Below are positions 8,187 through 53,919 of a stretch of 64,000 nt of DNA, in pieces. Within the stretch, counting starts at the first letter, position 1. Each line of letters begins with the position of its first letter. Below the pieces are notes generated by a model. That model searched no databases. It had not been told where the DNA came from and saw only the letters and a list, made by a program, of their open reading frames with translations. A program made the translations under genes and the position numbers. Location: the NCBI GenBank assembly GCA_965178125.1, contig OZ237745.1, positions 868,001 through 932,000 of the forward strand, given 5' to 3'. Origin of the DNA: Bilabrum cf. latius (lineage: Eukaryota).

Positions 8187-8254
8187 TTACTGAGGGTGAT
8201 GGCGCTATGGTGGCCACCACGCAGAAGGCAGCTTTTAGGCACAACAATAACATG

Positions 8255-17257: not shown

Positions 17258-20200
17258 TCAGAACTGCAGCCCAGCGCCGGCGCGCCCAGTGGCCGCCACA
17301 GCGTCCTCCGCCCCTTCACCCAGCCCGTCGTCGTCCTCCTCCTCCTCCCCCTCCGCTGCTGCTGCGGCGGCGCCGCCAGTGGCCACCGCACCGCTCACGA
17401 GGGAGGGATCCATGCCAGGGAACGACCTGGCCCTGCTGCGGCCGATGGGCTCGGGCTCGGGCCGCCTGCACGGCTCGATGCCCCAGATCTCCTTGGCGTA
17501 CTGCCCGATGGTCCGATCCGTCGAGAACGTGCCCATCCCCGCGGTGATGAGGATGCTCTGCCTGGTCCACGCCTCCTGGTCCCGATACAGCTCGTCCGCC
17601 CGCCGCTGGGCGTCGAGGTAGCCTTGGAAGTCGTGCCTGACAAGGTAGTAGTCGTTCTCGGGCCGCAGCACGTGCAGGATGGGGTCCACGTCGTGACCCG
17701 GGCCGAACTCGCCGGCACGGACCTTCTCAAGCACGACCTTGAGCTCCTCGCCGCCGTCCGACAGCTCCAGGGCCTTGCCGTCCCCTGCCCCCGCGCCTCC
17801 GGCGGCAGCCCCGGATCCGGCGCTGGGCGAGCCCTCTTGTTCTTCCGCCTTGGCCTCCTCCATTACGTCGGCGATCTTGCGGGCGGCCTTCCTGCCGTGT
17901 TCCCTGAGCTCGTCCACGTCATGAGACAGAGCCCCGAAGAGGAAGAGGTTCTCCACACCCACCTCCTCCGCGATCTCGACGTTGGCGCCGTCGTTGGTGC
18001 CGATCAGGAGCCCGCCGTTCATACAGAACTTCATGCAGGACGTGCCCGAGGCCTCCATCCCGGCGCAGCTGACGTGCTGGTGCATCTCGGCCGCGGGGAC
18101 CAATCTCTCGGCCCAGGTCACGTTGTAGTTGGGAATGAAGACCACCCGTAGGTAGTCCCGCACGTCTGGGTCGTTGTTGACCTTTTCGGCCACGCGGTTG
18201 ATCAGCAGGATGATTCTCTTGGCCATCACGTACGCGGGCGCGGCCTTGCCGGCGAAGAACTCCACGCGGGGCACGACGTTCGCCTTTCGCTCCTCTGGCG
18301 TCATCCCCTTGATCGCGTAGTACCTGTGGATGCAGTGCAGCGCGCTCATGAGCTGCCTCTTGTACTCGTGAATGCGCTTGGCGAACACGGTGTACATGAA
18401 ACCCTTCGTTGGCACCTCGACCTTTACCTCCTTCTTCACAAAGGCGGCGAGCCTCTCCTTGTTCTCCTGCTTGATCTGCATCCACGGACGGATCAGGTCG
18501 ATGTCGTCGGCGTGCGCGCGCAGGCCCTGCAGCTCGTCCAGCTCCTTGAGCCAGGTGCTAGAGCCGAGGGTGCTGCTGATCAGGGCAGAGAGGCCGGGGT
18601 TGCACTGGTTCATCCACCGGCGGGGGGTCACCCCGTTGGTCTTGTTCTGAATGAGGTCGGGGAACATCGCCTCGAAGTCGGGGAACACCTGCGTGCGCAG
18701 GAGGTGCGTGTGAAGGGCGGCGACGCCGTTCACTGCGTGGGAGGACACGATGGCGAGGTTTGCCATCCTGACCTGCTTTCCGTGGTCCTCCTCGATGATC
18801 GACATGGACCGGAGCTTGCCCGTGTCTCCGGGGAACACCTCCTTGACCCGCTCGAGGAACAGGTGGTTGATGTAGTAGATGATCTCCAGGTGGCGGGGCA
18901 GCATGCTTCCAAGCACCGACACGGGCCACTTCTCCAGGGCCTCTGGCAGCACCGTGTGGTTCGTGTAGCTGAACGTGCCGCGGCTGATGGACCACGCCGT
19001 GGCCCAGTCGAGACCCTCCTCGTCCACCAGCACGCGCATGAGCTCCGGCACGGCCAGCGCAGGGTGCGTGTCGTTCAGCTAAATGGCGTTCTTGGACGAG
19101 AACTCGGACCAGTCCCATCCCTCCCTCTTCTTGAAGCGCCGCACAATGTCCTGCAGGGTGGCGCACACGAAAAAGTACTGCTGCCTCAGCCGCAGCTCCT
19201 TGCCTTGCATCGTGTGGTCGGCGGGGTACAGCACGTTGGTGATGTTCTCGGCGCGCTGCCTCTCGGACACTGCCTTCATGTAATCGCCCTCGCTGAACTC
19301 GCCCAGGTCGAATTCCTTGGCGGGGGCCGCTTTCCACAGGCGCAGGTTGATGGTGTTGTACGAGTCGAACGCTGGGATGGGGTTGTCGTACGCCATGGCC
19401 ATGCAGACGTCTCCGCCCTCCCATCTGCGCCTCTTGTTGCCCTTCTCATCCTCGTACTCGGACACGCTGCCGAAGAAGCGGACGGGGTACACCACGTCGG
19501 TCCTCTGCACCTCCCAGGGGCTCCCGAGCGTCAGCCAGTAGTCGGGCATCTCCACCTGGTGTCCCTCCTTGATCTTCTGCTTAAAGATGCCGTACTGGTA
19601 CCGGAGTCCGTACCCCCAGGCGGGCAGGTCCAGGGTGGCCATGGAGTCCAGGAAGCAGGACGCAAGGCGCCCGAGGCCTCCGTTGCCGAGGGCAGCGTCC
19701 TGCTCCGTCTCGTACATCTTGCCGAGCTCGAAGCCCAGCTCCTGGAGGGCCTCGTCGTAGGGCTCCTCCAGGTCCATGTTGAGCAGGGCGTTTTGCATCG
19801 CGCGACCCATCAGAAACCTGGGGCAAGGAACAAAAGAAAGCGGGGCAGGCGGGGAGCATGAGATCCTCGAAAGTGTGCCGCAAGCTGGACATGAGGCGGG
19901 GTTCCTCCGAATCCTCACTCGATGCTCAGGTAGTACGCGCGCTTGCAGTCTGCCTCATCGAAATGCTGGCAGGTATCGTTGAAACTCTCAATGAGGCGAT
20001 CGCGGATGCTCAGTGCAGTGGCGCGGTATGCCTGCGTTTCGGGACCGATGGGGTTGCAAATGCAAGTCTGGATGAATCACGCGCGTCCTGCTCTGGATTT
20101 CGTTGGCATGGGCGAGCGGCTCACCTTGTCTTTATCCATGTTCATACGAGATCCTGCCAGGCTGTACTCCACATGGTTGGCGATCGATTTTTGGATGCTT

Positions 20201-20679
20201 GCCTTGTCTGCGTGCAGTACGTGGATACTGATCGCAAGGCACTCAAAAGCTGCGCGATGCGTCCCCGTAATGTGTGCGGCATCGGCATCTACTCCGTGTT
20301 ATTATTTCAAGTTTCTACTACCATTTCCCCCAAAGCCACGACATGAAATGTGATCGCCGTGAGGCTGAGTGACTAGCTCGCGACAGATCTCTCTCACCCG
20401 CGGTCAGGTAGCTTGACATCAAAGAAAAGAGCTTTTGGTGCCTCTTCCGGTCCGATGCATCTCCCCCTTCCTTTGGCATAGCAGTGCGTAGCAGTGGAAA
20501 CGCTGCGAGTCAACAATCATGGGCATTCTCAAATGTTCGAGCAATGCAACTGAGATCTTTCGAGGCAAGTGCAACCATTCATCGGTAGTCTCACCGTCTG
20601 TGATGCTGCTGAACGAAGCACGGCGATCTCCCAATCCCCCTCCCTTGACCGTGTCATGTACCAAATCAGCGGCAGCCAT
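17258..20679 (-). CDS. PYG: Glycogen/alpha-glucan phosphorylase (GT35), 981 aa, 5 exons
   Basis: Exons 20679-20595, 20502-20398, 20207-20125, 20031-19919, 19817-17258 with GT-AG introns; the spliced length is divisible by 3. Motifs YYLSIEFLMGR, DAALGNGGLGRLASCFLDS, I*LNDTHP (TAG 19079-19081), TNHTVLPEALE, KTNGVTPRRW, KRIHEYKRQ, PLP site EASGTSCMKF. Ends TGA. Confidence 0.97.
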
Positions 20680-20858: not shown

Positions 20859-23800
20859 TCACTGCCTGGAATGGCTGGTGATGGTGTCAGCTGCCTCGAT
20901 CGCAAGCGCCTCGGCGAGCGTACCGGCGACGTCCCGCCGCCTCTTATCCGAGCGTCGCCCCCTCTTCTTTGGCACCTTTTCCTTTTTCTATCCCTGTTTA
21001 CCGCCGTTTTGAGCACCTCCAGCCTTCGCCCCGGTCCCTGCCCTCAACTTCTTCTTCTTCAGGGCGGGCTCTTCCTCCTCCTGCACCACCTTCTCCTCCG
21101 CCTCCTCCTCCTCCACTCTCGGTGCTGACCCCCGGAAGAGCTCGTCAAGCGGGTCGGTGCCTAGGTACTCAACCACGCCCATGCCCAGTGGCCTCTTTGC
21201 CTGCTTCTGGAGGGAGGCACCGCCTTCCTCCTCACTTTCAGTACCGCTAGCACTGGCACTGGCACTGCCGCTGCCGCTGCCATAATCGCTATCGGTTGAG
21301 TCCAGGCCAGAGAGGCCGGCAAGAATCGCATCCACGGCGTCTACAGGATCCGCGTCTGGCATCGGTGCAGACCCGGACTAGACACTCGCAACGGAACCTG
21401 AAGACACTTGAAAATCAGGTGAAGGGGCCAGCAGGGCTCCCAGAAGGGAATCAGCGTCATCGGATGCCACTTGGTGCAAGGAGCCGGCGCCACCGTTCCC
21501 TGCAGCAGCGCCGCTTCCTCTAGCGCTAGGCTGTTTCTAGTTGTCGACCTTTGCAGTTGCATCGTTTGCATCCTTCTCCTTCTTGGACTTGACATCATTC
21601 CGCCTTCTGTCTCGGCCCGTCTGACGAGAAACCTTGCCGGCGTCCTCGTGCCACGATTCGAAACCAGTGCCGCCACCTCCGTCCTTCTTGTTGCCGCCTG
21701 CAGCCTTTTCACTGGCGGCTTTCTTGCCGGGAGCTGGACTGTCCGCCTTGCTAGGCTTTTCTGGAGTCGTTTTCCCTGTCGCCTTTGCCTTTGCCTGAGC
21801 GGCCTTGGCAGCCATTGCGTTCTTTGGGAACGCTAGGACCCCCGCTTTCATCGCTAGGTGTCGGTTGAGCTTGAAGCTCCTGTCCGGCGCGATGTCGACC
21901 ACCATGGTGATGATCTCCGTGCCAACCTCCGGATTGTACAGGCCAGAGTTCCTCAGCGCCAGGTATCCGGTGGGCAGGTTGTTGCTGGGCCAGTCCTCGA
22001 AGGAACCGGCCCTGGGGCTGGACTCGCTGTCCGCCTCCTTGCTCACCGCACCGGTGACCTTGACAAAGACGCCAAACTCCTGCAGGCTGGTGATCCTGCC
22101 GCGGACGAGCGAACCCGGGACGCACTCGAACTGCGTCTTGGCGAGCGGCTTCTCCTCGTCATCTGACCCAGTGCCGCCCGCCCCCTGCTCTTGCGCCTGC
22201 GCCTGCGCCTCGGCCACCTTCCACGCGTTCATGGTAGGGTCATTCCTGGGATCCACCCCTAGGTCTGGTATGAGCTCGCGAATGCTTGGGGCCGGTGACC
22301 TTCCCCCCGTCGACCCGTCACTGGCTTGGGTCTTGCTCGCCGTCAAGGCTTCCTGCTTCTGCTTGGCAGGCTCTGAAAGAAACGGTATGCCAGTTGGAAG
22401 GCTGCTCGCATCGGGTGCGCTTGGCGGAACGTACGGCCCAGGCGATCCGCTCGAGTCGACGACTGCCCCCTGGGTGCCAGTGGCGCTGGCAGTGGCGCTG
22501 CTGCTGGCCTGCTGGGTGCCGGCCGCTCTAGCATGCTGGAACGGCACATCGGGCGAACCAACGATACCAAGTGCTCCTACGTGATCAGGGGAAGGCAATA
22601 GAACCAGCTCTTCCACGAGACGCTTCGCGAGATCGAGCCCAAGCTAGTCGCGAGAGAAAATCTGCAAGTAGTCGGTATCTCCGTAGAAGCTGAGCTAGCT
22701 GTTTGTCTCCCTCTCAATCCTGCGCAGGTTCCGTGCTCCAGGCCCGACCACCTGCCCTCGCTTCGACTGCGGCACCATGAGCAGATCGATCCTCGGCGCC
22801 GTGTCCCGGAGCCCCTCCTTGGGCGCCTGGATCGTCTGCTTCATGCGGTCCAGGAGCTCTTTCCTGGCGGCCCGCGCCCGCCACACGCCCGATTCGAGGA
22901 TCTCCAACGGGATTCCAGGCAGCTTCAAGTCGAGCTGCACGGCAGTCACCCCGTGGATCGTACCCGCTATCTTGAAGTCCATGTCGCCGCAGTGGTCCTC
23001 CAAGCCCAAGATGTCCGTAAGCAGCAAGGCTTTCTTGCCGCTTGGCACGGGCCTCAGGTCGTCTGACTCAGCTGCAGACCGGTCCGAATCACCAGCAGCT
23101 TCCGTCGGTTCGCTTGCGTTCCGGGCTCGATACGAGCCGTCGGAGCCCCAAGCACCCTGCTCCAGCTTGCCCAGCTCTGGCGTGCTCACCATCCCGATGC
23201 TGATGCCAGCCACGTGCTCCTTGAGAGGCACCCCTGCATCCATCAGGGCCACCGACGCCCCGCACACAGTGGCCATGGAGCTGGATCCATCCGATCCAGA
23301 GATCTCTGAGGTGACTCTGACAGTGTATGGGAATTCCTCGGGGCGCGGCATCACCGGAGCAACGGCCTTCTGCGCGAGCGCGCCATGCCCAACCATCCGT
23401 CTGTTGATGCCTCCCACTCGGCCCACTTCATTCACGCTGTACGGAGGAAACTCGTAGTGAAGCATGAAGGCTTTGGCACTGGGCTCCACGGGAGCCAACG
23501 GGTTGCGCCTCGCGTTGCTCAGCTGCCACATGGACAGGGGACCCAGGGTGGTGGTGCACAGCGCCTGGGTGGCACCCCGCGCAAATAGAGAGGACCCGTG
23601 CACGACGGGAATGACTTCGTTTTCGCACTGCAGCTGCCTGATATGCATGGAGCTTCGCCCGTCCGGTCTCCCAGACGTCGCTTTGCCAAGGTCATACCCG
23701 GCTTGCCGCGCCTCAAGGTTCGAGTCAATGGACACTGGAACGACAGGAGGCTTGGGCTCGCTGAGCAGATCAGAGAGCTCTGGCAAGCCTCCTTGCGAGT

Positions 23801-25224
23801 CAGAGTCGCTGCTGCCGCGCGAGCTCGATCTCACGGTTCCTCCGTCTTTTGCTGACCTGGCAAGCCTCGCAATCTCGTCGCTCCCAGGCGCGACGGCATC
23901 GTGCACGGACTGGGGCACAAGCGTGCGGATGGCTGAGGCCTTCGGGCTCAGCTAGACATAGTTGGACAGGATGGAGTCTCGCAGCGCGTCCTCCAGCACC
24001 GAAGACGCGGCTGCCACAATCATTGCGTGCGGTCGGTCGGAGAAATCGGCCTTTAGGCGCTCGATGCACTCAGCCTGCAGCTTGCCTTGCATGGCGGACC
24101 GCTACTGCTTCGACTCCATGCCGGAGCTGTAGCCCTTCCTGGCTTTCGCGTACGCAAACGCCGCAGCCGCAGATTTGAGATCCGAGTCGGGCGCCAGCGT
24201 CTCCCATTCGCGCTTGGGGCGGCCCACCAGACTCGCCAGCTCCCTCTAAAGGTCACACTGGGCCTTGAGAGCGGCCTGGCCTGCCCTCATCGCCGCGATC
24301 AGCTGGTGCTCGGGAACTTGCTCCCCGGCCACCTCGAGCATGAGCGTCCTGGTTTCTGTGCCTGCGTACAGCACGTCCAGCACGGATGCTTCCTGCTCCT
24401 CCCTCGAGGGGTTGAGGACGGGCCCGCCGTCTACCCAGCCAATGTGCACGGCGGCTGCGGGGCCATGCCACGGGATGTCGGACACCGCAAGGGCCGCAGA
24501 AGCGGCGGCGATGCTTACCTGTGGGGATAGTATATGGTGAGGAGAAGGCGGTCAGGTAGGGTCACAGGGGCGGGGCGTTGAGATAGGAAGGCGCGGTTGC
24601 GGTTGGGTCTTGCTGCCAGCGAGCTGGTGACTCTGACCACGGCTGCTAAAGTGCAGCGGCTGTCGTGATGAAAGTGGGCCTTATGAGCCGGCAAGCGTGG
24701 CATCTCACGGTATCTGGTGGAGCATCCCTATCAATTGAGGTGACTGAGCAAATGATCTGAGTCTCCGTCGAGTAGCCTTTCGGAAACAAGGGCCGCAGGG
24801 TCCGATCGATCACCCTGGCACCTAATATTTCGTGATCTGTGTTGCCTCCCTCTCGCCCATTGAATGTTTGAGGAATGACTCCCTAGGCAAACGATTTTTC
24901 TCGGTACTCAACCTGGAGCGGCAGAAAGTCGCTCTCCCCGATGCCGTGCTCGCTGACAACAGACGTGAGGACGGACGTATCCCCGTAGCGAGCAAGAACG
25001 ACTCCATCCGCAAGCGGGCCGATTTTTCCAGTTTCTAGTGATAGCTGCCTCCCGCAATAATCCGTCGAAACCTTTCTAGGGGTCTGAACTGACGAAGACT
25101 TCGTGCGAGCGCTCAGCTTATGGCATGGTGCTGGCTACACTGGCAATCTTCTGCATGTTTTAGCTAGTGACTGGCTGATCAAGGCATTCCATTTTCGCAA
25201 TCGTCCTTCATTTAGCCGACGCAT
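20859..25224 (-). CDS. PNPT1: Polyribonucleotide nucleotidyltransferase (PNPase), likely mitochondrial, ~1391 aa with long C-terminal extension
   Basis: Exons 25224-24709 and 24518-20859. Motifs [98 protein letters not shown], then KH and S1 domains. Arg-rich N-terminus resembles a transit peptide. Ten in-frame TAG; ends TGA. Confidence 0.95.
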
Positions 25225-25337: not shown

Positions 25338-26496
25338 ATGGCATCCCGCCGGCAGATCAGGCTCAGGAAGGAATATTTGTACAAGAAAAGTTTGGAAGGT
25401 CGCTAGAGGGAAGAATATGAGAAGAAAGAGGCGATTAGGAAAGCATTGAACGGTGAGAAGCAGCAGTTGCAGCTGGGACATGTGCGATGTGCCTGGGCTC
25501 TGCAGCAGGTGTGCTACCATATTCCTCTAGCTCGTAATCGCAGAGGGTAAGCCAATTCCAACGGAATTGCGAAAGTTCGAGGCAGAAATGCGAAGAGAAA
25601 TGGATTTCGAAGACGATGTGACCAGATAGCAAAAGGTGAGGTCGTCGTGGGCATTCAAGCAGCTTCCTCGCGTCGATTTCCATCTATCGAATTATCATCA
25701 TATTCAACTAGTATTGCAGTCTGCGATTGACGACGAGTATAGCGCGTCAGCCGGCCGAGAGCCGAAAGTATGCGTGACCACATCGCGGTCTCCGAGCAGC
25801 AGATTGAAGATGTTTGCGAAGGAAATCAAGCTGTTGTTTCCCAATTCACAGAGAGTGAACAGAGGGAACACCAAGGTTGGAGATCTGGTAGGCGCTTGCC
25901 GCAAGGCAGACTTCACGGACGTGGTGGTAGTCCAGGAGACGAGAGGCGAGCCCGATGCACTCATCGTGTCCCACCTGCCCTTCGGGCCAACTCTCTGGTT
26001 CACCTTGTCAGGGTGCGTGATGCGGCACGATATCGAGGACAGGGGACACGTGTCCGAGCAGGCCCCGCATTTGATCTTCCACAACTTCAGCACGCCCCTC
26101 GGCAAGCGCGTGCAGACTGCTCTCACGCACCTCTTCCCGGTGCCCCGGCTAGATGCCTCCCGGGTGCTCACGTTTAGCAACAGCAAGGACTTTATTTCCT
26201 TTAGGCACCACAACTTTAGGGACGAGAGGAAGAGGGCGGGAGCCGCGACTGAGGAGGACAGAGGGGGCGCTGCGACCGGCGGGGCTGCTGCTGCTTCGGG
26301 GGGGGAGGACCCGCCTGCGGATGCAGGCGGCAGCGCGGGGAAAGGGTCCAAGGGGGTCGAGCTGGTAGAGGTGGGTCCTAGGTTTGAAATGATGCTGTTC
26401 CAGGTGTCGCTAGGCACGATCGAGCAGGAGGGTGCTGACGTGGAGTGGGTGCTGAGGCCTTACATGAACACCGCCAGGAAGAGGCGAGCGCTGTGA
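25338..26496 (+). CDS. IMP4: U3 snoRNP protein IMP4 (Brix domain), 327 aa, 3 exons
   Basis: Exons 25338-25452, 25544-25635, 25720-26496. Motifs RLRKEYLYKK, GKPIPTELR, IDDEY, TTSRSPSSRL, SHLPFGPT, DFISFRHH, EVGPRFEM, EWVLRPYMNT. TAG at 25404 and 25627; ends TGA. Confidence 0.95.
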
Positions 26497-32478: not shown

Positions 32479-32536
32479 AGCGGTTCACTTTGGACTTCTA
32501 TTGCTCGCAGTGACTGGCACCGCATGCACGGTAAGC

Positions 32537-36969: not shown

Positions 36970-39900
36970 TCAAGAGCGCCCCACCGCAACCCATGCACCT
37001 CGCGATGTTGGGGTTGGTGACCGCTTAGCAACTTGTAGCCTGAGGTCACCCAGGCAATCTCCATCCTCATCGTCCTCGACGGCGTCTCGGTGCTCCTCGC
37101 CCCTCCACCCCATCCTGCCTGCCCCGCCCTAAGATTCACCGGATGTACTACCCCGAGCATCCACCAGAGCACTGGATGATCCGCCCTGGCTTCCTTGATC
37201 GGCCACGCTGCTGCTGCTGCTTCTGCCAGAAGCACCGCGCGGGAGTTGCTGCCTCAGCACCGCCGAGACATTCTTGCCAAAGCCCGACACGTCCATGCTC
37301 GATGATGACGTGCACGAATTTCTGTCCGCCAGACAGTCTTTCGTTGCGCTTACACTACCTGCGCGAGAGAGCATGAGGCCATTCGCATTCTCCTGCTCGC
37401 TGCCGCTAAATACTCCAAGGAGCCGCCGTGCAACCGAGACTCGGGTCGCAGCCACGTCAAAAGCTGGAAGCGCGCATCCGTGCACAAGGACGATGCCGCT
37501 GTCCCCGAGATCCACCGAGGTGGGGGCACCAAGCCCTGCGAGTGGCGGTCGATGCATGGGATCTCGGCCATGCACTGCGCCGTGCACATTCGCAACGACC
37601 GTCGCTGCTTGCTACAGAAAGTGGAGCAGAACCGGCTCTTCCCTCACGAATCCGCGCTTTGTGCCGGTCTTTGCCGCCTTGATTCTCTCCCTACGATTGA
37701 GGGCGATGGCGTCGCGGCACTTAGCTGGGAAGCCGCGGGCAAGCTGACCCACTTCCTGGCTCTGTGCGTAGCAAAACGGGTCCTTCTACTCCTTTGTTGG
37801 CAGCACAGTCGCAACGTCATCCTGCAGAGACCTGGTGGCCACACAGTCCGCTATATTTGGGTCTGAGGGCGAGGCTGGCGAGAAAGCCTCCGTCGTACTG
37901 CTAAACACGCCCTTTCCAGAGCCTGCTGCGCTGCGGTTTTCACGTGGAGCGGACGTTACGTCTGCTTCTTCGCCCCACGCCTCCACCACCTTGCCTCTGG
38001 CCTATTTCGGTTGTCTCGCCCTGATCGCGACGCAGCTGCCTGCTGCAAATACCCGCCGAAGCCCCACCACGCGCATGTCCTGCTCCACCAGCAGCATGCC
38101 TTCCTCGTCCATGCGGGACCTCAAGTGGAGCGCTGCAAAGCCCGTGTCAGGGTTCCCCCTCTCGGCCCAAACGACCGTGTCGGCAGTGATGGTCCTACCC
38201 TATTGCGTAGTTCCCCCGCCTTTGCTCGGCTGCCAGCTGGCAAGAGGGTCGCCCATCACAACCTCCACGCCGTGCCTCTTCAAAGCTTCCATGGCGTGCT
38301 TGGCCGGGTCGATGGCTGGTCGCCTTTGCTGCGAACACCCGACCACGTTGCCAACCAAGCGCCTACTATACTCCATAGATTCAGGTACAGAAGATTCTAA
38401 CCGCTCCCTCGTACCATCCGAATCTTCCCACCTGGCTGCGCTGGAATGAACCGACTGAACACGGCTCTGAACACTGGCTGCCCTGCTCAAAGGGGCGACA
38501 GGAAGCTCAGTGAGATCTGCTGCAGCACCACGGAGGGACTTCTGCTGCACCTTGCAAGGAATCACGCCGCCCTTCACGAAGAGCTCTTCCAGGAGCAGCC
38601 GTGGGTGCTTGGCGTACGGCTCTCTCTCCGAAGTCACCGCGCGTATCACCCTCCTGGCAGTGGAGAACACGGCACCATCGAATTGCTTGGTCGAAGGTTC
38701 GCTATCCCCCGCGCTGCTGCTCGTGCCTGCCTCTCGGCTGCCTTGTCGCACGGTGGAGCTCTGTGCCCGTACCCGAATGCGTGGAGTGCTGGTGCTCGAA
38801 GTGGGGGGCATTCTGTGAGAGCAGAGCTATCCAACAGCCTGGACGCGCTGGGCGCTCCTTGTATACCTCGGAAGCAGCTCCATCGATCTGCTCACCAAGC
38901 AGCACTGGCGCTCCGGAAAACAACGCTTGAACGCAATCGCCAGTTCGATCCCCCCGGCTCCGCCGCCCACCACCAGCAGCGCTTTGGACTTGGTCAGCCC
39001 TTTGCGCAGCAGCTGCTGCTCCTGCTGTCCCTTGGCTGCCAACGAGTACCAAGAGCGACGAGCTGCTTGCTCGGGAGGTACAGTGGGCGCCTGATCGGGG
39101 GCAAGCACGAGAAAGTCATAGGGAATCCGCGCACGCCCCACCTCGATGGCATCAGAGTGGATGCCAACGCAGCTGGTATCCATGACGTTGCCATTCTTCA
39201 CCGTGGCAGCAGCATGGTCGGGGCATCGCAGGCGTCCGAACCAGGAGGCCCGTGCGCGATCCGGGAGCACTCCATGGAGACTCGGCTGGTGCCAGTCCAT
39301 GGTGGTTCTTGATCCGCATACCAGCGTGACGCGGAAGGAAGGGTTCTGGCACAGGCAAAAGGCGGTGACGCAGGCACTCGCAGACGCGCCGACGACCACA
39401 ATTTCGGTCTTGCTGGGCCCAACTGCCCGCTGCATCGTGAGCTCAACCGCGTACTGGCCTCCAGGTTCTGACTCGTTGCTTTCATTCTTTTTGTCCGCAC
39501 CAGCAACTGCCTGCTACTCGCTTCCTGCACATGCTGAAGACGGCCCCCCCTTAGTCTCCTTTTTTTGCATGCCCCTACCGGAACTGGATCCAGAGGTGCT
39601 GGCTCGCTCTGCCTTCAGCTCTTCTTGCAGATGTTTGATGAAGTGAGGCCATACGTTCTGCATGATCACCTTCATGGCAGCGCGTTGGATGGGCTCGAAG
39701 GCAGAGGGGAGCAAAAATCCCCCCTCTCCTATGTCGGCGTCCGACGGGTTGTTGCTGGCTGCTAAGTGTTTGGAGCTGTCACACCTGTCGCGCTTGCTCG
39801 GCCGTTCCACTAGATCACGCGTACTATGCCCAGCTGTCTTCCTGATAACCTGACTTGACTCATCTGCAAGCTGCTTGGACATCTTAGCGCAAGCCCGTAC

Positions 39901-41478
39901 TTGCGACCAGAGGCTCTCAGCGTCAGCCTGCTTCCTGGCTGCTGCGATGTCAACTAGCGAGTACAGGCCCGCAGAGCCGCCCCCCTGGTAGGAAATACCA
40001 CCGAGAAGGGAGCCGCTGTTCCCGCTGACCGATAGATCATCCGAGCATCCGATGCTCTGCATGGCTTGGACCAGAACGGATTCCGACTTCTTCTTGGCTT
40101 GCGGGGGTGCTGCTGGGCGCTTGGACCCTGCTGCACCGCTGTCCCCGCTGCTGGATCTATTCTGTGCTCCTTGCCCCTTCACAGTGTCTGCTTCACTCAA
40201 GACCGGCGAGGTGATCCCCAGCCGCGCCTGCACTGCTGCCGCAACACGAGCCCTGCCTGCCGGAGACATTTGCGCTGGTCCCCTGGCAACATCGAATTGA
40301 CTGCCTCGCTGCAGACGGGCTTCGAAGCCATCGCCATGCGCGCTGCCGATCGGTCGGGTACGAGTTGGCTAAAAATCAATCCTATTCATTGCAAAGGGTT
40401 CGGTCTGTCTCGCGGCCATGCTAAAAGCGCTCGCAGCATGCTGTTCTCCATGGTGCTGCACCCTGGCGTGGTTTCGGTGCGGCCCACGACCGCGTGATAT
40501 GCCTGTTGCCAAGCTGGACGAAGCCTTAGGAAGCACGCTTGGAGATGCCTCTGTGTTAAAGCTTGTAGCTGATACTATTCGGTTGTCTTGTCTATCGTGT
40601 GACAGCATGGAAGGCGCGATTGCCCGCTATCCGCTGCCAGTTGCTGTGGCAAATTCTGCGTCCGCTGCCGTGGGATCATAGATTGCCCGAAAGTGGGTGC
40701 GTTTTCCCTAAAAACTCGACACAATTAGCACATTAGTCTCTGAGGAATCGCTGTGCCTGTGTGCGCTGCCCTACGCTGCCCCAGGGGATACTTCAGCTCG
40801 GTCCTCGATCGATAAACTGGTGGCATCGACAATGGCAGACCACCCTGTCCCTCCGAGCGGCACAACCTCGGCACCGTCTGCCTTGGCCAACATTATGGAT
40901 CTTTTAATCAGTGGCGCCACATCTAGCATGAGCATCGCCGACTTGTTCTAGCTCAAATTCGCACCAATCGCCGGGATGTCTCCACCGTATCGCGCTAGCA
41001 TCGCAGCATGCAACAGACCACACAGCTGCTGATAGCTTCGCATAACATGCGTGCGAACTTGATCAGATATATTTAGCTGCATCGGTGCGCGCTTGATCAC
41101 GTACTGCTCCACTAGGTACTGCGAGCAGGCACGCACAACCTGAACGATTCTCTTCTACCTGCCTCCGGTTATTCTTTGTGGTTCTCGAGCATCAGCATGG
41201 ACCGCAATAGATTGATGCAATCTTGAATAGCGTAAGAAATCGATGTACGCAAGCACGCTATCTTCGCAGTGCAATTTGGCTGCTATTCTAAGCAAGCGCG
41301 AACGCAACGAATGAAAGCGCGAAACTCCGGTCAGGCTGACATCAGAAAGACTCAGAGCCGCTGTCGTAGGCAGCATGTACCTCTCTCCCGCCATGGAGCC
41401 ATCTTCATCATGGTCAGCTTGCCCAGCACCCACCGCATCGTTTGGATGTGTAGTAGTAGTGGAGGGACAGCAGCCCAT
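36970..41478 (-). CDS. Lipid-anchored RGS-domain plus AIFM2/FSP1-like flavoprotein fusion, ~1500 aa
   Basis: Single frame from MGCCPS (ATG 41478) to TGA 36970 with 13 TAG and no internal TAA/TGA. RGS motifs HCEDSVLAY, EQYVIKRAPMQLNIS, FEPIQ..MQNVWPHF. Flavoprotein motifs IVVVGA, IPYDFLVLA, LVVGGGAGGIELA, GMLLVEQDMRVVGLRRVFAAG. A further 3' exon (36837-36647) is possible. Confidence 0.75.
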
Positions 41479-41846
41479 GACGACGCCAATACCGCAAAAT
41501 GAAGGAGCGAACCTCTTAACTTGAAATTTTGTACTCAACCGTGTCTTTTTGCGCAAACTTGCTTCCTCAAATCCAGACTAGTACGAATACTCTTAGAGAA
41601 AAGTTGAAGCGCAGTTTACTTCACTTGTGACGCAGTCGGTGCCACAAGTGGTCGCAAGATGGCACAGAACGTTCATGAACACAACCAAAAACGCTCGATC
41701 CATAATCGCCATTCCAGCCCACTAAGCAAGCATTTAGGACAAAATGGCAGGATTTCTACCTGCTAGTCACGAATCAATGACTAAGTGAGTACCAAGGACA
41801 AGCTATGCAACTCGCAGCCACAACCTGTGTGACCCCTTGTGCTAAA

Positions 41847-44800
41847 TCAGACTCTCTCCGGAGCCCTCGGACGCCGCCGCCCGGGAGGCACACGACGGCC
41901 CATGGATCCAGGACTAGACCCTACCCCGCTATGACCAATGGCCTTGCTATCTTCTGCAATCGCTGCCTACGCTTGGCCGCCATGGTTCTCGGCTCCATGG
42001 GGCGAAGCGTCACTGAAGCCGGACCTGTCAGCGTTCGGGCCCGCATCTTCACCAACACGGCCATGGTCATTTCCGCTGGCCCCAGCACCAGCAGGGCCAC
42101 TCCGTGCATTCATTGCACTTGCCCACCGCAGTCCAGTAGGGCCTGTAGTTTTCTCAAGCTTCACAAGCTCCGCCTCATTGCGCCTCATCCTCTCGCGCAT
42201 CTCGAAGTACCCGGCCCACACCGCATACGCAAGGAACACCGCATTGATCGCGATCAGGAACAGCGTTGCAAGGACTCGCACGCCGTCACCGAGCCTGCCC
42301 GTGTTCAAGAACAGCCCAGCAAGCAGGCTGAGAACGGCAACATCGAGGCTGAGCTCGTCCAAGTGATTCAATGTGTCGCTGACGTACGGCTGAGTGCGGC
42401 TGTGGATGGCACGAAATATCACGTAAACAGCAGCACTCGCAAATGCTTGCATGTCTGGACCCAGAGGCTGCAGCGTGACACCAGCCACAGCGCTGAGCGT
42501 CTTGCGAGCGATAATCACGGCCTCATTGAAGTAGTACTCGTGCTTGTAGGAACTGTAAAAGAAGCCTAGGGAGCGTCTCAGCTGGCCGGTGCGCAGCTCG
42601 TCTCTCCTTAGCGTGAGCAGTCCTACAACCACCAAAGGGATGCCAGCTGTCCAAAGGACGAGGGCAGGCACGGCAACAGCCAGAACGAAGCCACTGTGTG
42701 GCTCCTCAAAGCATCGCACGGACAGGTCCTCCACGAGGTACCTCTGCCCGCCCTCAACGATTGTCTTACATGTGAGCAGCTGCAAGGCCGTCCTGGTCAG
42801 CAGAGTGTGCAGCAGGAAGAGAACGACCCCAACCGATAGAATCCACTTCTCTGGAATCCTGTCCAGCTGCTTCTCCAGCTTCTTTCTCGCTTGACGCATT
42901 GCATTGTGGCGAGTAAGATTGCGTGCGATTGCTGCCTTGGCGCTTCCTGAACCGCCAGAGCTGGCTGCTGCCGCTGCGGCTGCTGCCGCTTCATGCTCCA
43001 GTCCTAGGTCTCTACGAAGAGCCCGGATCCTCCTGTGGATATCGTCCGGGTCCACCAAGGCTCCTCGACGCGACCTGTCGCCAGTAGCCTCTGCGGAACC
43101 AGTCGAGTTATCAGAGTCAGTGGACTCTTCCACTGATTCTTCTTCGCTCTCGGCAGCACCCTCCGAGGTGGTCAAAGACGCCAAAGATGAAGGCGGCTAG
43201 GGCTGCCCGTGGACGAGCAAGCCCCCTCTCCTGCGGCTGCTTCCCTGCGCCAGCGGGTTCTCTTGATGCAGGGAATACTCGGTGCGGCGCTGCGCTGACG
43301 CAGCTGACATAATCCTACCATGTGTGCTAGAAGCGCTGAAGCTGCCGCCACCCGTGAGTATCTGAAGCACGGAACGTCGTCTGGAATTTCTTGGCGGTCT
43401 AGATCCTGACGCAGGGGCGTCCTGCCCTGGTGCGCCTACTTGACCTGACTACGGCACCTGACTAGATACACTACCACGGCCAACTTGCCCAGGCTCGTAT
43501 GGTAGCGTGGACTGCAAGTAAAAGTATGCCCCGACCCAGAACCCGGTGATAATGAGGGCAAGCGCGAAGGGAACTACCTCGATCAGGGTTGCAGACACTA
43601 GCCACTTCGTGCGTGAATCCCCCTGCTGCGTCCCATCGTCCACAGCGCACTCGAATGTAATCATGTTCATCCCCGCAGACGAGGTCGCATCGAAACCCTC
43701 GAACATGGCTAGCACGCTTCTGGGCCACTGCAGTTCAAACGCGGCAGCGAGAGAGATCTGCTGCAAGTGATTCACCAGAATTTTGGCAATGCCGACATGA
43801 GTTGCGGATGCATGCCCCCGGCTGCGAATAGAGCTGTATATGGCCAAGGACAAGCCGCATACGCAAAGAAGTGCAAGGAGCAAGCCAAGCGCTGCGGTAA
43901 TTCCTCGTGGTGGACACTCATCACAACCTTGCGCAGGAGACCACGAAAATCCATCAGTACATGACGCGCACAGCGGGCCAGTGTACCCGGCTCCGCACTG
44001 AGTGCTGTGTTCCCACAGCTGACGCACCGCCGCCCTTGTCTGAGCGGCAGCAGCACGACCAATCACTGCGTCGAGTGCAGCACCTGGCCTGAGAGCGGCT
44101 TCTATGAGCGCCTCGTGCCGACTTGCTGGTGCTCGAGTCGTGTCGCTGTTGTTGCCGGCGGCACCTGCACCTGGGTTCTACAGCTGCCTAGCCGTGCTGC
44201 CTGCTGCTGATCCATATGCTGAAGATACTAACAGCGTTGGATTGGCTGCCAGATCAGCTAGTGATAGCCCACTCATCGATCCATTGCGAATGAATGACTC
44301 CATCGTCGGCGGTACAATCGACAGTGCCTCGCTGTTGGAGCTGTTGACTGGTTTACCGGAACTCAGTACTTGGTCGCTAGCATGCAGACCAACGCGCTCG
44401 CGGACGCCGGCAACAGCCGACTGCAGGCTGGCAATTCCATCGATCACCATTTGTGCATCGTCACCGTTCCACCCGTCGCACCTTTGGACAGAATCGACGC
44501 CGCTGCATGGGACAAACACTGGCAAGACTCCATCACCATCAGCCGGAAACCACTGATATCCAGCGAGAGGCACAATCTCATGCTCTAGGTCGCCGCTGCA
44601 GAATGCCCCTTCTGGGCACGGATTGCACCTGACGGCGTCAAACTTTTCTGTGTTTGAGCGAAGGAACTGACCCAATGCTGCTGCCGATTCATCAAACGCG
44701 AATTGTGATGGGCGGCGACCTAAGCGCAGGACGTCTGCACTCGGGGTCAGGCACCTGGGCAGCACGGGGGCACTCCACGAAGACCATGGCCCTTCCAATC

Positions 44801-47800
44801 CAAATATGTTGCGAAACCTGGATCGAAGCACCACGGAACCCTCGGGTATCCCAAACAACTGAACTTGCACCGTCTGCATCTGCCACAGAACACCTCCGAT
44901 GGTTGTCTTGCGGCTGTCGGTCACGCTGTCCCCGAACTGCTCGACTAGCCTGTCGTCTGCTGACGGAGACAATGCCGGATCTGTCAGGTTCGCAGAGCTT
45001 AAGTCGGCATACTGGATGACCAACGACGTTGGGACATCGTTTTCAGAATCAGATTTTGCCAGTACGCCACCAAGCTGCTGCGAATCTTGCTCTGGAGCGC
45101 CCCCACTTGCAGCTGGGAATGCCACGAGCACCTCCACCACGATTTGATCGTGCACCCCGCGCTACTTGGCACCTTGCACCGCCACAGGCCGTAAACCCGG
45201 CGGCCTTGCACTTACGACGAAACTGAAAGCCGAGCTGTCGGACGTGGATGAGACGTGCCCACCTGCAGTGATGACCACAACATTGAAGTCCAGCGTAGAG
45301 AAAAACGGTGCTAGATCCTCCGTAAAGGAGGGAATCTAGCACTGCCACTATAATGATGGGACATCTTCGCTTGGCTGTTGGCACTGGATCCGGACAAGGA
45401 CAGAATCATCAGCCGACCAGTCACCAGCCGTCTTGTTGGTGCTATTGAGCCAGACCGAAACTGCAGCTTCCCTGTCGCCAAAGCGGCCATTTTCCATTAG
45501 TCCAGCCGCATCTGCTGCACCAGCTGTGCTAAAGGCGGTCAAAAATATGCCCACGAGCTCTTTGCTGCCAGTCCCGAGGTTCTACCCGCTGACCAGGAGA
45601 TCCGTCCCCCCGGCTGCGCCCGTTGTGGGACTGACTCGCAGTACGCGGGGAGGGCCAACTATCGCAACAGAGGTAGACGCCACAACAGTCACGTTGCTGC
45701 TCGATCCTTCTCCACGGTACCTAATGGAGTCTGCTACCTGCCCGCCCACGACTAGCTCGGCTGGAAACGTTGCGATCTCTCCCGCGCCCACGGTCTGCAA
45801 GCCCAAGTCCACGCCATCGCAGCGGAGTTGGCTTGTGGCACCCCGGGGGATCTCAGCAATGACCGAAGTACCTTCGACCGGCTCGGGTGGCTGCACCCTG
45901 CCGAATCGCTCGTCATCCGCAACGAGCAGCGACAGGTTCGAAGTGCAGTCGATGCCAGCAACTAGCACAGCATGCGCCGTCTTGTTCTCGCCCGTGCTAA
46001 GATCCTCAAATCGGTTTCCTGGCAGCATGGCAGATCGTGCGCCCAGATTTTCGCCCAAAAGATCAAACGCCTGATATCTCGCCAGGAGTTTGGCCGCACC
46101 CTGCACCGGCAGCTGTGCATCGGCAAGCCCTGCACCTCTGTCGGTCGATGATCGACTGAATACAATGGAGGGCACAACAGCAAACATTCCTGGACGATCG
46201 TAGTCCACCACACTCGTTGCAGCAGTGGATTTTCCTTGTATTGCGGCCTGGACCGGGAATACGCGGATCCCAGCTCCGATCGATGCAGGGATACGAACTT
46301 GCCTCTGCGCGTGACCAACGCCCGCAACTTCAACTGGCTCGCTGGAGATTGACACCTTGCCAAACTAGAGGTAGAGCGGACTTATGTCCATGCCAAGGCT
46401 TGTGCCACCAACAGTCACAATGCCTCCGACTGTTGGCATCGTAAACGGCAAAATCGAGTTGATGAGTGGCGGAGCCTGCTCGATTCGGGTTCGGATCAGG
46501 CTGTCATCAGCAACCTGCTTACCATCCAATTCGTTCGCAATGCTCCAGTCGACAGGGCTCAAGGTAGTGTTGCCCAGAGTAACTCGAAAGAACGGCTGCT
46601 GGTACCCCCGCACTCGGACAGAAACGGTTATGTTGCGCCCCAGCACTTCGGGAAGGATACATGTAAGTCCTCTGTTGGCGAACACGTATGCAGGTTCCAG
46701 GCAAGTGCTCGTTTCTCCTGTGGCTGGGATACCGATCGAAACGTCATCGACAGCGGCGATGAAGTTCTTGGCGGGGTCGAGAGAGACGTACATTCCATCC
46801 CCACCGAGGACAAGACGCTGACCACCGCCCGAAGATAGCAGCAGCACCGGCGGTGACCTTGCGTCTCCAGGGGGCGCAGTGCACCCTCGCTACACAAACC
46901 CCGCTTCGTTCAACACTTCACGGGCGCCAAGAGCGTAGATGCAGTATATTTCGGGACTTCTGTACTAAAACTCTACCCATCTACCGAATCGAGTCCGAGA
47001 CACGGCTATCGGCAAGGCGCCATCAGGCTGCCCCTGGACGCGTAGCTTCACGGAAACTCGGGCGTCTTGCGCGTATCCAGCAGGCATTCCTACGCAAATA
47101 ATTGTCTAGCTGGTCACCACTGTTGCAGAATCACACTATCGCACTTCATCTCTCTGCCCAAGATCGATCGTTTGTATCTCGACCTACACGGACACCAGCT
47201 CGCCACCGGTCGGAAACCCAAACCCAGAAATCGTGACTGGATAGCCGCCCCCTCTTCTGCCAGAGGCGGGCATCACCGAGGTCAAGTACGCTGGCTCATA
47301 GTTCACCATGACTGGATTGGCTTCACTGCTGCCACCCGGGCTACCCGGACGCAGGCGGCCTTCCCTCTCTAGATGCACCTCCACTTGAGCCTGGCTCAAA
47401 GCACCCCGCGGCGTGACCGCGCGAAGGTGAAACACGGGAAGTGTTCCTTGTGCAGGAGTTATCGTTCCAATAGGGAGAAGAATCGTGCGAGTGTCCAATG
47501 TGACCCGTGTGTCCCACCACACTCTTGAGCAAGGCTTGCCTCTTATTGTCACAGAGACTGGCCTTGGGAGCACGCCAAGCTGAACGAGGGCCGTGGCATT
47601 CACCTGCTCCGTTGGTAGTCCCATAAGCACTGATATTGCTTCATGCGCAAAAGGGTCGTCATACACTGGGATGTCGATGGTGTCCCCTCCGTCAGGGTCC
47701 AGATTGGGCGACAATGTCGACAGAGCCGAGCCAAGCGAGCGACTTGCAAGAGTTGGTTGCCCAAACGTGAAACCCGTCACGCAAGGCAACCTAGACTTAG

Positions 47801-50800
47801 TTTCAAATCCACCGATGACTCGTGGAACAAATCGGTCATCGCCTGTGTACTCGGCAAACGAATCCGCGGAATCGTGCTGGGGGCTCTGCCGTGCTGGCCA
47901 CACTAGCTGCTGCATCGCAGTGCTTTCATTAGACACCGCAGCTGGCAGAATCCTTCTCTTGCATAAACGCATATCTGAAGGTTCTTGCACCGCAACACCA
48001 GCTGGCAAGAGGCACGACTCTTCCAAGCCGAGCATGGACATTCCTAGCCAGCTATAAACCTCGATGCTGTCATCTTCATCTACATCGTGTGATGACAGCA
48101 CTGCATTGCAGCTGGGCTCAATCGAGGCAGTATACACGCGGACTGGGCGGCCAGCAAAGAGCTGCACTTGTTTCAGCGACGATGTTCGTGATAGCGCTGA
48201 CACAGCAGACCCAGACAAATCGAGCAGCGACAGTGGCACTGGCGCGGACGCCAGGGCACCTGGTTCCAACCCAACTATGTTGGAGCCTCGCAAGTGCAAA
48301 GACGAGGAGAAGTGATAGGAGCAATCCTCCAGTACATACACATCTGGTTCACCACTTGTGCGATCCCATAGCCCGGACAAGTCCCGCACCAGCTTTGCGC
48401 TCTCCAGGCTGCCGTACCCTGGACGCATGCAGCAGCCGTGGTTCCACTGAGGACCAGCTCGGGCCCAGTCCGCCGGGCTATCGTCGTCTCCAATACGATA
48501 CGTAGGTAGCCCGCATTGATTGTTGTTGCACTGCCCGAAGAAAACAGTGCGCGAGTCAGACCGTAGCACGGCAACATGATCTGTGCCCATTGCCACGCCG
48601 ACAGCATCAGCACCCACCCTGAGCTCTAAGGCGACTGCTGGCAGCGACGATCTCCCCGGAGCATCGTATGGTTGCCGAAGAATTTGTTGACTCAGACCAA
48701 AGCAAAGCACGCGCCTAAATGGCTTGGTACTATTTGACGGGTCGTCGTTCCATCGTCCTGCGGAAGGCGCTACAATCACGCAGTGACCGTAGCTATTCAC
48801 CGAGCCAGAAAGAACTCTGACAGCCTGCCCGCGGTTGAATTGCACGTCACCGAATGAGAATATTTTGCGGGGGTTTCCAAAGCCAATCCAGTGAGAGGAC
48901 TAACCGTGCAGCCCCGAGCCCCAGCAACGCAAACCACCGCTTGGTGCAATAATAGCACACGCTGTCCCGCTACCTCCGGCATACACTCTAGCAACTCGCA
49001 TACCTCTGAAAAACTCTAACGGAGATAGAATCGGCACATAATCTGATCCAAGCTCAGCAGGGTCCTCGTCGTCCCCTAGATTGGTGCCAAATCGGCTCTG
49101 CGCCTCGCTCATGCCCAGCATGGTCCCCGAGCCAAACGTCCGGACAACGCCACCTGTCAGCAGCGCCACGACGGAGCCTGAATTCATTGCAATCTGTTCA
49201 ACGACTTTGCCATCAGTTGTCATGTTCACTATGTTTTGCCGCAGAGTTGCACCATACTGCACTTCCCGGCTCGGTCCAAGGCCGCAATTCGTACCTAGTT
49301 GACACTATCCGAAGCAAAGTAGCTGACCGTCTTGCCGCAAGATGCACGTTGACTATACATCGGTTGTTACAACTTGCTTGACAGGGCCCCCAACGGGAAG
49401 GAATCGAGCTTCTCTTGGCTCTCTTCTCAGCCCCGTGTCCGCCACGCCAAGCTGCTTGGCCTGGTTGTATCCCCAGCAGATAGCACCGCTTGTTGCCCCC
49501 GCAGAGGCATTCTTTAGGACAGCACAGCCGTGTCTTTTAGAGATTGACAAATCCGATACTCTGCCAAACGCACGCCAGGGAGTTTCCGAGGCAAGCGCAA
49601 CCTGCAGCCCGTCACTCTCAGCAGCGGCGACCAAGTCGATGTCACCAAGCGAAGCAGGCGAGGTGCCGAGCGGCATCTTGGTGACAGACGGCTGGTGCAG
49701 CGTGCTCCTCCAGAAGGCCTTTGGGGCATGCTTGCCGGCCTGGTGGTAGGAATGATCACCTACGCACCTGACCCTCCCGTTCGACATGATCACACAGGTG
49801 ACACCATCCGCAGCGTGAACAGACACGGGGTAGGCAGGCGCTACCATGCCTGGGGGGCACTCGATATTGCCAGGGGGTGGCACCCACGCCGGTGCAGCCA
49901 ACAGCTGGTAAGGTCTCTTCACCTCTGCGCCCTTGAATGATACGGTTGCAACGCTCGGTCTTGTGCTACTGCCTTCCGGCTGCGTTGCATTGGCCCAGTC
50001 AGATCGCAGGTACTCAGCCCCTACATCAGACACCAGAGTTGCACCGTGGGCAGCTTGCGGAGAGACTATCGTCGCCTCCCCCATGCCTTGCGCTACCATT
50101 AGTCCATCCGAATTCTATAGGAAGCAGACGATCTTGGTAGACGGGAAGTCTTGCACACTCTCGAAATCTCGTCTCTGCAATGGTGCGGTGCAGTCGCTGT
50201 TGAGAGCCTCGGAGTCCCAGCTGTCAGCGCCAGTAAGTCGGCTGCGTAGCACCCATGAAGGCATGCTGGTGCTCATATCAGCAGTTGCGAGCAGCTGGCG
50301 CGCAAATGTCGTGTTCTTGACCAAGAGAACGCACATCCTCGCCTCTTCGTAATTGCGATTGCCAGCTGCTTGCACCGCGAGGTAGCCCCTCGGGAGGCCG
50401 ACTAAGCTAGCAACAAACGCGTGCACCCCCCCATTGTCTCCATTTTCCTCCGGTATTGCGCTGTTTCGAGGGAACAGCAGCGGGTCCGGTTGCCCACGGC
50501 CACCAGTACCGGCCGGCCTGTACCCAAATACGCGAAGTCGCCCGTCGCGCGTGATCACCATTGTGCCCATGTCTGCCCGCGTTGCTCGAACGTACAGGAG
50601 ATTGCTATCCATGCCATCTCCAGCACCAGTACCGTTGTGAATAGAGCGTAGGTCCACCGGAGGCTCTAGCCTGGGCTCGAGGATGTCCTCGTGTTCGGCT
50701 TGCACCATGTCTTTCTTGCCCCACGGAACTAACTAGCCAGTTGACAGCACTGCCGCCAGCCCTTCCCCTGCACCAGTAGTCACGCCAACGATATACACTG

Positions 50801-51885
50801 GGCTGCAGTGCATCCTAGCGGTCGAGGATTCCACGCTGTCCGGCAAGTCGCCTCGGTCGGCGCACCCTGGCGGCACGCGCGGCCGATAGGGCCAATCGGT
50901 CGCATTGCGAGCATCAAGAACAGGCGCGATTTCCGCGTACCCCTCCTGCAGTCCAACGAAAGCCTAGCCTATTCCGTAGTTTCGACCAAGAGTCTTCGTC
51001 TGGGCGCTCTGCTAGCCCGCACAGTGCAGGCTGGTGCCGTTCAGGATCACGCAGGTCACATCAACCCCGCCCCCGATGGCGGTCACTGACACCCCATAAC
51101 CGGGATTGAAGATTCCAAGTGTCCCCTTATTAGTTATGGTTACCGGAGGAGCCCGAAAGGATGACCCTTCTCGTTGCCACGGTGCCACTGGCAGGATCGA
51201 GCCAATCCTATACGTGCCGATGTACGACGGCCCTCTCGCCTGAAATCCGCCATTCACACGCCCAACGCATCGAATTTGTCGGTCATGCGCACACACAAGA
51301 CACGTGTGCTGCAGCGCTGCGTGCAGGGAGGCAATTCCGTGTCTGCTGCTGCCGCCTTCGCACCCCGTCTGAATCAGCCTGAACTCGCTGCGATACCCTT
51401 TGCTTGTCGAAGAACTCTCGAAAGGCTCGACCTGGTAATTAGCATTTCTGCGAAAAAATGTAGCGGTGGGGCAACTTTGGGATTGCTGTGATTGGAGGAG
51501 GCACAAAGTAACTGAATGCATGCTTCCTGCCTCACGAACCGGCTGCGAGCAGTGATCCGTTTCGCAAGATCACATACCGCTGGTCGTTGTCTCCATTTGA
51601 ATCCGAATGACACAATACTGCAACTGCGTTGTCGCTTGGACGTGCAACCACCAGTCTCGGGTCCAGAATGGATTCATCGTCACCAATTATTGAGCTGAGT
51701 TGGCCTTCAACTTGGTTGTTGGCCTCGGATGAAGAGCATCGCACGAGTCCATTGAGGTATACGACGCATATGTCAGATCCACAGATCTCGACCTAAACTG
51801 CGGGATCCTCAACACACATAACCGAGATTACCAAAAGGAGCATCCACACCACTGGCGCACAACTGTACGGTTGCCTCCTCCACAT
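41847..51885 (-). CDS. Giant cell-surface protein: signal peptide, RCC1/BLIP-II-like repeats, IPT/TIG domains, Cys-rich module, multi-pass C-terminal membrane domain, ~3316 aa
   Basis: Exon 51885-51536, 88-nt intron, then exon 51447-41847 in one frame with 21 TAG (22 in the whole gene). Motifs GGLRCWGSGLHG*, ICWGYNQAKQLG, GGYPVTISGFGF, GGTDLLVSG*NLG, CPEGAFC, CGAGYTGPLCASC, KILVNHLQ, LGFFYSSYKHEYYFNEAV. Ends TGA. Confidence 0.8.

Positions 51886-53882: not shown

Positions 53883-53919
<37 letters not shown>

Follow-up and report, generated by a model that had tools for sequence, protein, structure and literature searches.

A glycogen/starch phosphorylase gene of family GT35 lies on the minus strand of the DNA of Bilabrum cf. 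latius studied here (64,000 nucleotides, positions 868,001 to 932,000 of contig OZ237745.1, assembly GCA_965178125.1; this whole stretch is called the window, and all positions refer to it), and its reading frame contains a single in-frame TAG. The minus strand from 19090 to 19061 reads AAC GCC ATT TAG CTG AAC GAC ACG CAC CCT, with the TAG at 19081..19079, so that the amber codon which an earlier note on this DNA had pointed out within 19058..19096 is indeed there and in frame. Translation with table 11 splits the gene at this point into two open reading frames (ORFs; 17258..19051 and 19079..19918), whereas with TAG read as sense the frame stays open from 19954 to the TGA at 17258-17260. Upstream, four gaps seen in assembled contigs, once shifted by 0-2 bases to give GTGAG..CAG borders on the minus strand, delimit four introns (Table 1). 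Joining the five exons from the start codon that we infer, the ATG at 20679..20677, yields exactly the 981 codons that the earlier note had given for the enzyme; codon 375 is the only TAG among them, and TGA ends the frame. The product matches PF00343 (carbohydrate phosphorylase) over its full length (E=6.8e-296, 983.7 bits against a cut-off of 27) and has 8000 homologues at E<=1e-50. The pyridoxal-phosphate (PLP) motif was also said to be intact, and it is: ASGTSCMKF is present, and the E, A, S, G, T, M, K and F columns of the E-A-S-G-T-x-x-M-K region are invariant in 18 of 18 aligned sequences, the lysine being the one that we take to bind PLP in GT35. Only when the TAG is read as a residue is this full-size frame unbroken, and it then covers its homologues from end to end. 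Judging from the sequence, the TAG at 19081..19079 is most likely codon 375, for glutamine, of a complete spliced phosphorylase, and not a break in the gene.

The same letters are found in contigs of four sequencing runs from 2025, belonging to three studies (X1 in one study; X5, X6 and X7 in the two others). The site at 19079..19081 is spanned, without a differing letter, by a DNA contig of X1 that is 14.7 kb long and by contigs of X5 (2986 nt), X6 and X7 with joined exons, these joints being taken as a sign of transcripts. Contig coverage of the phosphorylase region (from 17230, 17415 or 17333 to 19815) shows no other letters, and over the 20 kb compared there are two single-letter differences only, none of them close to the TAG (the repeat at 31510-31604 was skipped in this comparison). 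Since the DNA contig and the exon-joined contigs agree, the TAG is neither an assembly error of the window nor part of a hidden intron; and since it is unchanged in the exon-joined contigs, editing of UAG to CAG does not occur at this site, within the resolution of contigs. The CAG that the earlier note had proposed to look for is likewise absent from the site in all four runs, as judged from contigs and not from raw reads.

The phosphorylase is by no means the only gene concerned. Across 11 long frames of the window, which add up to 14,893 codons, there are 82 in-frame TAG triplets but no TAA and no TGA, when about 208 of the latter two would be expected from the all-frame triplet frequencies of the window. 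Ten of the 11 frames contain TAG, and 81 of the codons lie beyond the phosphorylase site, spread over nine frames; a tandem-repeat frame at 3251-8617 (5 TAG) was excluded from these counts, every frame being open there and coding unproven. The longest ORF obtained with TAG as sense has 3240 codons, while none of 30 block shuffles gave one above 1098, and recognizable domains (RNase_PH/KH, TTL, Pyr_redox_2, RCC1/TIG, FtsX, RING) are found in the long frames. TAG occurs in frame at 5.5 per 1000 codons (1-11 depending on the gene), close to the all-frame rate of 6.6 per 1000, which speaks against avoidance, and it makes up 12.5% of TAG+CAG+CAA in the 11 frames. Twenty of the in-frame TAGs fall within contig pieces of the spliced run X5 (one in the phosphorylase, eight in PNPase, six in frame 26698-32475 and five in the TTL gene), all of them without differences. 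As for termination, TGA ends nine of the 11 frames, TAA two and TAG none; if TAA is read through, the two frames that it closes grow by 1 and 5 codons only, and one of them stops just past a C-terminal RING finger. TAA behaves as a stop, and since it is absent in frame and terminates two frames, UAG and UAA are uncoupled in this genome. The opinion of the earlier note that the phosphorylase is not a decaying gene is thus strengthened, the gene being complete, its TAG unchanged in exon-joined contigs, and TAG being in frame in 10 of the 11 long frames.

The window has a GC content of 62% (54-75% along its length), a GC content at third codon positions (GC3) of 0.6-0.9, and GT..AG introns of 84-190 nt. 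TAG density differs between genes: frame 52436-54574 has none, the phosphorylase, with a GC3 of 0.89, has 1.0 per 1000 codons, and frames whose GC3 is near 0.6 have 6-11 per 1000. Reassigned UAG has been reported to be avoided in codon-biased genes, and the lower density at high GC3 is similar to that pattern.

The identity of the amino acid can be approached through the residues that homologues carry at the TAG sites. In the phosphorylase, the column facing the TAG holds Gln in 17 of 17 sequences of a first alignment, including P0001 (97% identical) and P0002 (80%), and in 120 of the 120 matches listed, with Lys in none, in line with the earlier note, which had described the position as usually Gln in GT35. 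A second diagnostic site lies in PNPase, where the column of the TAG at 24248..24246 (column 203) holds Gln in 31 of 33 sequences of a first alignment and then in 110 of 120 (Ile in 10, Lys in none). Four other PNPase columns, also counted over 120 homologues, are mixed: A67 V17 T13 S6 Q6 at column 54, D58 E30 A13 S10 Q3 at column 251, S63 T18 R10 Q10 K7 at column 720, and K42 A23 P22 E7 L6 Q5 at column 737; so is oxidoreductase column q1093, with K22 S20 T8 D8 A6 G4 N4 Q4 out of 82. Five further TAG sites are spanned by protein fragments of close relatives (81-91% identity), with Gln at two of them (P0242, at residue 2, and P0249; 85-91% identity) and Lys at three. Rough log10 odds, obtained by adding column log-odds for 7 sites to PAM30 scores for 5, sum over the 12 sites to +4.2 for Gln, -4.6 for Lys, -6.4 for Ser and -11.2 for Glu, with Leu outside the eight best-scoring residues; when the columns are down-weighted to 10 effective sequences, Gln keeps +4.1 and Lys has -0.5. 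Alignments with PDB entries for PNPase, TTL and the FSP1-like protein are uninformative, the TAG sites falling at variable or weakly aligned positions (facing Ile, Ser, Thr and Pro in PNPase, Leu and Pro in TTL, Lys and Met in the FSP1-like protein).

We are almost certain that TAG is a sense codon in this genome, and the sequence comparisons make it very probable that its meaning is glutamine. It is also highly likely that we are looking at a genome-wide reassignment of TAG to sense, of the type in which UAG is Gln and UAA is a stop (as in NCBI table 15), with UGA and UAA still terminating. Several points speak against this interpretation and have to be set beside it. The strongly conserved columns hold only two TAG sites, the others being variable. 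Close relatives show what stands at six of the TAG sites: Gln at three and Lys at the other three (RCC1/TIG 1735, and oxidoreductase q108 and q177, that is, ORF residues 146 and 215). This ratio describes changed sites only, as the sites at which a relative keeps TAG break its ORF and are invisible. Taken alone, these close-relative sites slightly favour Lys (2.3, versus 1.1 for Gln). The absence of TAA and TGA from the 11 frames is partly built in, the frames having been defined as free of both, so that the weight rests on frame lengths, domains and contig cover. Also, the evidence from the runs consists of assembled contigs, which drop rare variants, and of libraries whose types are not recorded. 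Finally, a tRNA search of the window (ARAGORN, Rfam) returned tRNA-Met only and no suppressor tRNA, and no eRF1 gene was found among the window frames scanned with Pfam.

The lysines in the relatives lead to a different proposal, namely that TAG, though a sense codon, encodes Lys (or Glu, Ser or another residue) instead of Gln. Besides the three sites just mentioned, there are two variable columns in which Lys outnumbers every other residue, PNPase 737 (42 of 120) and oxidoreductase q1093 (22 of 82), and UAG=Ser and UAG=Leu are reported from other eukaryotes (PMC11687900). However, at the two Gln-dominated columns, in the phosphorylase and at PNPase 203, Lys is found in 0 of 120 sequences each time, Gln leads Lys by 8.8 log10 units (4.6 after down-weighting), and Ser, Glu and Leu score far below Gln in the summed odds, which makes this proposal distinctly unlikely. 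Moreover, CAG and AAG are each one base away from TAG, and as the exchange of Gln for Lys is mild, Lys is to be expected among the changed sites of a diverged relative. The share of Lys is nonetheless above that of a plain Gln model at average rates; it may come from TAG/AAG exchange at unconstrained sites, or from a young code, and the excess is not fully explained. The predicted ORF of one relative, P0241, ends exactly at a TAG of the window, which means that the gene caller read TAG as a stop there, and the genome of P0241 probably keeps TAG at that site.

A dual meaning of TAG, stop or sense according to context, would turn the phosphorylase TAG into a read-through site. Codes with context-dependent stops are known from other protists (PMC4967479, PMC12005148), and the window alone cannot show that TAG never terminates a gene. 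Yet all 11 frames terminate at TGA or TAA, TAG is scattered throughout the genes at a density that reveals no avoidance, and in-frame TGA or TAA is absent altogether, unlike in codes that use all three stops in frame; we therefore judge a dual meaning to be very unlikely. Nonsense mutation, misassembly and RNA editing, which would mean a dead gene or an unreal codon, are extremely improbable explanations of the TAG. A lone in-frame stop in an otherwise perfect gene does resemble a fresh nonsense allele or a base-calling error, but the letter is identical in the contigs of all the runs, exon-joined ones included, and the 81 other in-frame TAGs sit in nine other frames, none of which is broken by TAA or TGA.

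The explanation that we favour is the following. The window is nuclear DNA of a protist that is rich in GC and has introns; UAG serves there as a regular sense codon, most likely for Gln, and UGA (mostly) and UAA still terminate translation. By analogy with published UAG-only codes (PMC5304391), a tRNA with anticodon CUA and charged with Gln would read UAG but not UAA, and an eRF1 without UAG recognition would have kept that of UAA and UGA. The predominance of TGA at 62% GC suggests that GC pressure may have made TAG rare as a stop before its capture. If the residue is Gln, the tryptic peptide NAIQLNDTHPALAVPELMR is expected from the TAG region of the phosphorylase; if it is Lys, trypsin would cut after N-A-I-K and give LNDTHPALAVPELMR.

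Table 1. Position and supporting evidence of the phosphorylase exons, introns and sites, and of other genes of the window with in-frame TAG codons.
Feature	Position	Strand	Evidence
Phosphorylase exon 1, coding part (ATG 20679..20677)	20595..20679	-	981 codons when counted from the first ATG after splicing
Phosphorylase intron 1, 92 nt, GTGAG..CAG	20503..20594	-	Contig joints, splice borders
Phosphorylase exon 2	20398..20502	-	Contig joints, splice borders
Phosphorylase intron 2, 190 nt, GTGAG..CAG	20208..20397	-	Contig joints, splice borders
Phosphorylase exon 3	20125..20207	-	Contig joints, splice borders
Phosphorylase intron 3, 93 nt, GTGAG..CAG	20032..20124	-	Contig joints, splice borders
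Phosphorylase exon 4	19919..20031	-	Contig joints, splice borders
Phosphorylase intron 4, 101 nt, GTGAG..CAG	19818..19918	-	Joint in contigs of X5, X6 and X7
Phosphorylase exon 5 (last and largest), codons 130-981	17261..19817	-	ORF, PF00343; joint 19815>19917 set on GT..AG
In-frame TAG, motif N-A-I-[TAG]-L-N-D-T-H-P	19079..19081	-	Codon 375 of the phosphorylase coding sequence
Lys codon of the pyridoxal-phosphate motif ASGTSCMKF (18052..18026)	18029..18031	-	Column invariant, 18/18
TGA terminator of the phosphorylase	17258..17260	-	Aligned C-terminus shared by relatives P0001 and P0002
PNPase main exon, 8 in-frame TAG	20862..24518	-	RNase_PH and KH domains; human PNPT1, E=3.9e-99
Second diagnostic TAG, PNPase (position 203 of the spliced protein)	24246..24248	-	Spliced X5 contig, 0 other letters
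FSP1/AIF-like oxidoreductase frame, 1540 codons, 14 in-frame TAG	36973..41592	-	Pyr_redox_2
RCC1-like and TIG frame, 3240 codons, 21 in-frame TAG	41850..51569	-	Domain matches

The other genes that carry in-frame TAGs are of diverse kinds. PNPase has a ninth TAG in an upstream exon, beyond a 190-nt intron at 24519-24708 (contig joint 24516>24707). The TTL-family protein (frame 31508-34771) has seven, of which those at 31718 and 32192 lie upstream of the TTL homology and are included in the 82 but not in the 20 covered by contigs, and there are three in an FtsX-domain protein and seven in a RING protein. In the frame at 41850-51569, RCC1-like repeats and TIG/IPT domains occur together with a multi-pass membrane region at the C-terminus, and among shorter proteins this frame matches only three fragments from close relatives and one distant sequence. 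In the frame at 36973-41592 the oxidoreductase domain is interrupted by long low-complexity inserts, and the N-terminus starts with MGCC, which may be a signal for acylation. Contig joints at 25451-25718 and 34958-35407 (plus strand) reveal more GT..AG introns, 84-152 nt long; the genes concerned are an IMP4/Brix gene, one exon of which has an in-frame TAG at 25627-25629, and one that matches DUF2934. A Pfam scan of 39 further short frames gave only Sybindin and DUF2934 above the cut-off, with three sub-threshold matches besides, and no further conserved TAG site. A tRNA-Met (CAT) at 3044-3116 on the plus strand is the sole tRNA and the sole Rfam match in the window.

Part of the window is repetitive. 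Two GC-rich tandem arrays, one at 3424-8201 (42-nt unit, about 124 copies, 83% matches) and one at 8250-10526 (99/146-nt unit, about 11-23 copies), show a strong GC skew of 0.27-0.35, and since all six frames are open across the first of them, ORF-based counts are meaningless there. Contigs of several runs jump among 17347-17354, 21251-21261, 22779 and 24625, with some 21 matching letters on one side; these jumps are probably mis-joins induced by repeats in the coding of Ala/Gly/Glu-rich tails, and not rearrangements. A dinucleotide-type repeat at 31510-31604, which encodes a VQ run, breaks the X1 contigs between frame 26698-32475 and the TTL gene.

Regarding the lineage of this genome, the best named match of the PNPase is Cafeteria roenbergensis, followed by oomycetes. 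In a quick tree of this one gene the PNPase of the window is sister to that of Cafeteria with an SH-aLRT support of 92 (not starred), and both lie inside a clade of 14 rows (99), the other rows of which are unnamed sequences. The genome of Cafeteria is given as about 70% GC (10.1101/751586), and among stramenopiles GT35 phosphorylases are reported from Opalozoa only, where they group near those of alveolates (PMC7965971); the match list of our phosphorylase is consistent with such an opalozoan/alveolate-like GT35. An Rfam scan found no rRNA in the window. From one gene tree and the gene content, the organism is probably an opalozoan, bicosoecid-like stramenopile. An affinity to ciliates (Protocruzia) or fornicates (Iotanema) was considered and is unlikely given the gene neighbours, the introns, the GC content and the PNPase tree, and Amoebophrya sp. 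ex K. veneficum was rejected as a source, being described as A/U-rich at third positions and as using each of the three stop codons in frame.

Codes of this kind are known, and the lineage is one for which no earlier report was found. Indeed, a literature search that did not extend to subscription journals or supplementary files returned no nuclear code change in stramenopiles or bicosoecids, and its only match for a stramenopile code change, PMC11412368, cites just a paper on a mitochondrial code. It is tempting to go further and propose that UAG=Gln with UAA=stop arose independently in a GC-rich opalozoan, as the first nuclear code change of a stramenopile, that GC pressure and TGA usage freed the amber codon, and that the TAG/AAG differences mark a young, still-spreading code; we advance this as a tentative proposal, toward which we are slightly more doubtful than convinced. 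Nuclear codes that split the meanings of UAG and UAA are rare, PMC11687900 naming exLh, Iotanema, Scotinosphaera, Protocruzia tuzeti, an uncultured ciliate and some phyllopharyngeans, and one more, in an unrelated lineage rich in GC, would be an independent data point on amber capture. It would allow the roles of GC pressure, of the origin of tRNA(CUA) and of the change in eRF1 to be compared. There is also a practical side to it: annotation under the standard code would fragment most genes (10 of the 11 frames here), and predicted proteins of relatives already occur as such fragments in public collections.

Compared with the GT35 enzymes of opalozoan stramenopiles and alveolates, the phosphorylase has protist sequences as its best matches, at 51-61% identity, and it differs from most homologues by an extra Ala/Gly/Glu-rich insertion and tail, as well as by its amber codon. 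A metagenome scan with the phosphorylase gave five loci, all at 45% identity and none a close relative, and these were left unused. Among known codes, UAG=Gln with UAA as stop has been described in Iotanema spirale, in Protocruzia tuzeti and in two phyllopharyngean ciliate lineages (PMC5304391, PMC11687900). The window resembles them in that UAG alone is reassigned, Gln is the meaning that suggests itself, UAA is still a stop, and UAG is rarer in the most codon-biased gene. Unlike those cases, it is GC-rich, has GT..AG introns of 84-190 nt and uses mainly TGA to stop, whereas UAA is described as the dominant stop in the published ones (PMC5304391). Its PNPase groups with that of Cafeteria and not with fornicates or ciliates, and this PNPase is of mitochondrial type.

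The window shares the reading of amber as Gln with the table 6 codes, in which UAR is Gln (many ciliates, hexamitid diplomonads and some ulvophytes), but not their use of TAA, which is in frame in 0 of 14,893 codons and ends two of the 11 frames here. In UAR=Gln codes the expected mechanism is a suppressor-type tRNA-Gln together with an altered eRF1. A nuclear reassignment of UAG alone is also reported for the rhizarian exLh and a phyllopharyngean lineage, with UAG=Leu, and for Scotinosphaera, with UAG=Ser (PMC11687900, PMC5304391); in contrast to these, Leu and Ser fit the conserved columns of the window very poorly (-6.4 for Ser versus +4.2 for Gln). Finally, as in Amoebophrya sp. ex Karlodinium veneficum, Blastocrithidia and Condylostoma, in-frame stops are found in at least about half of the genes, essential ones included. 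Those three differ from the window in having UGA and UAA in frame, which never occurs here, and the Amoebophrya transcriptome is A/U-biased at third positions, where the window has a GC3 of 0.6-0.9.

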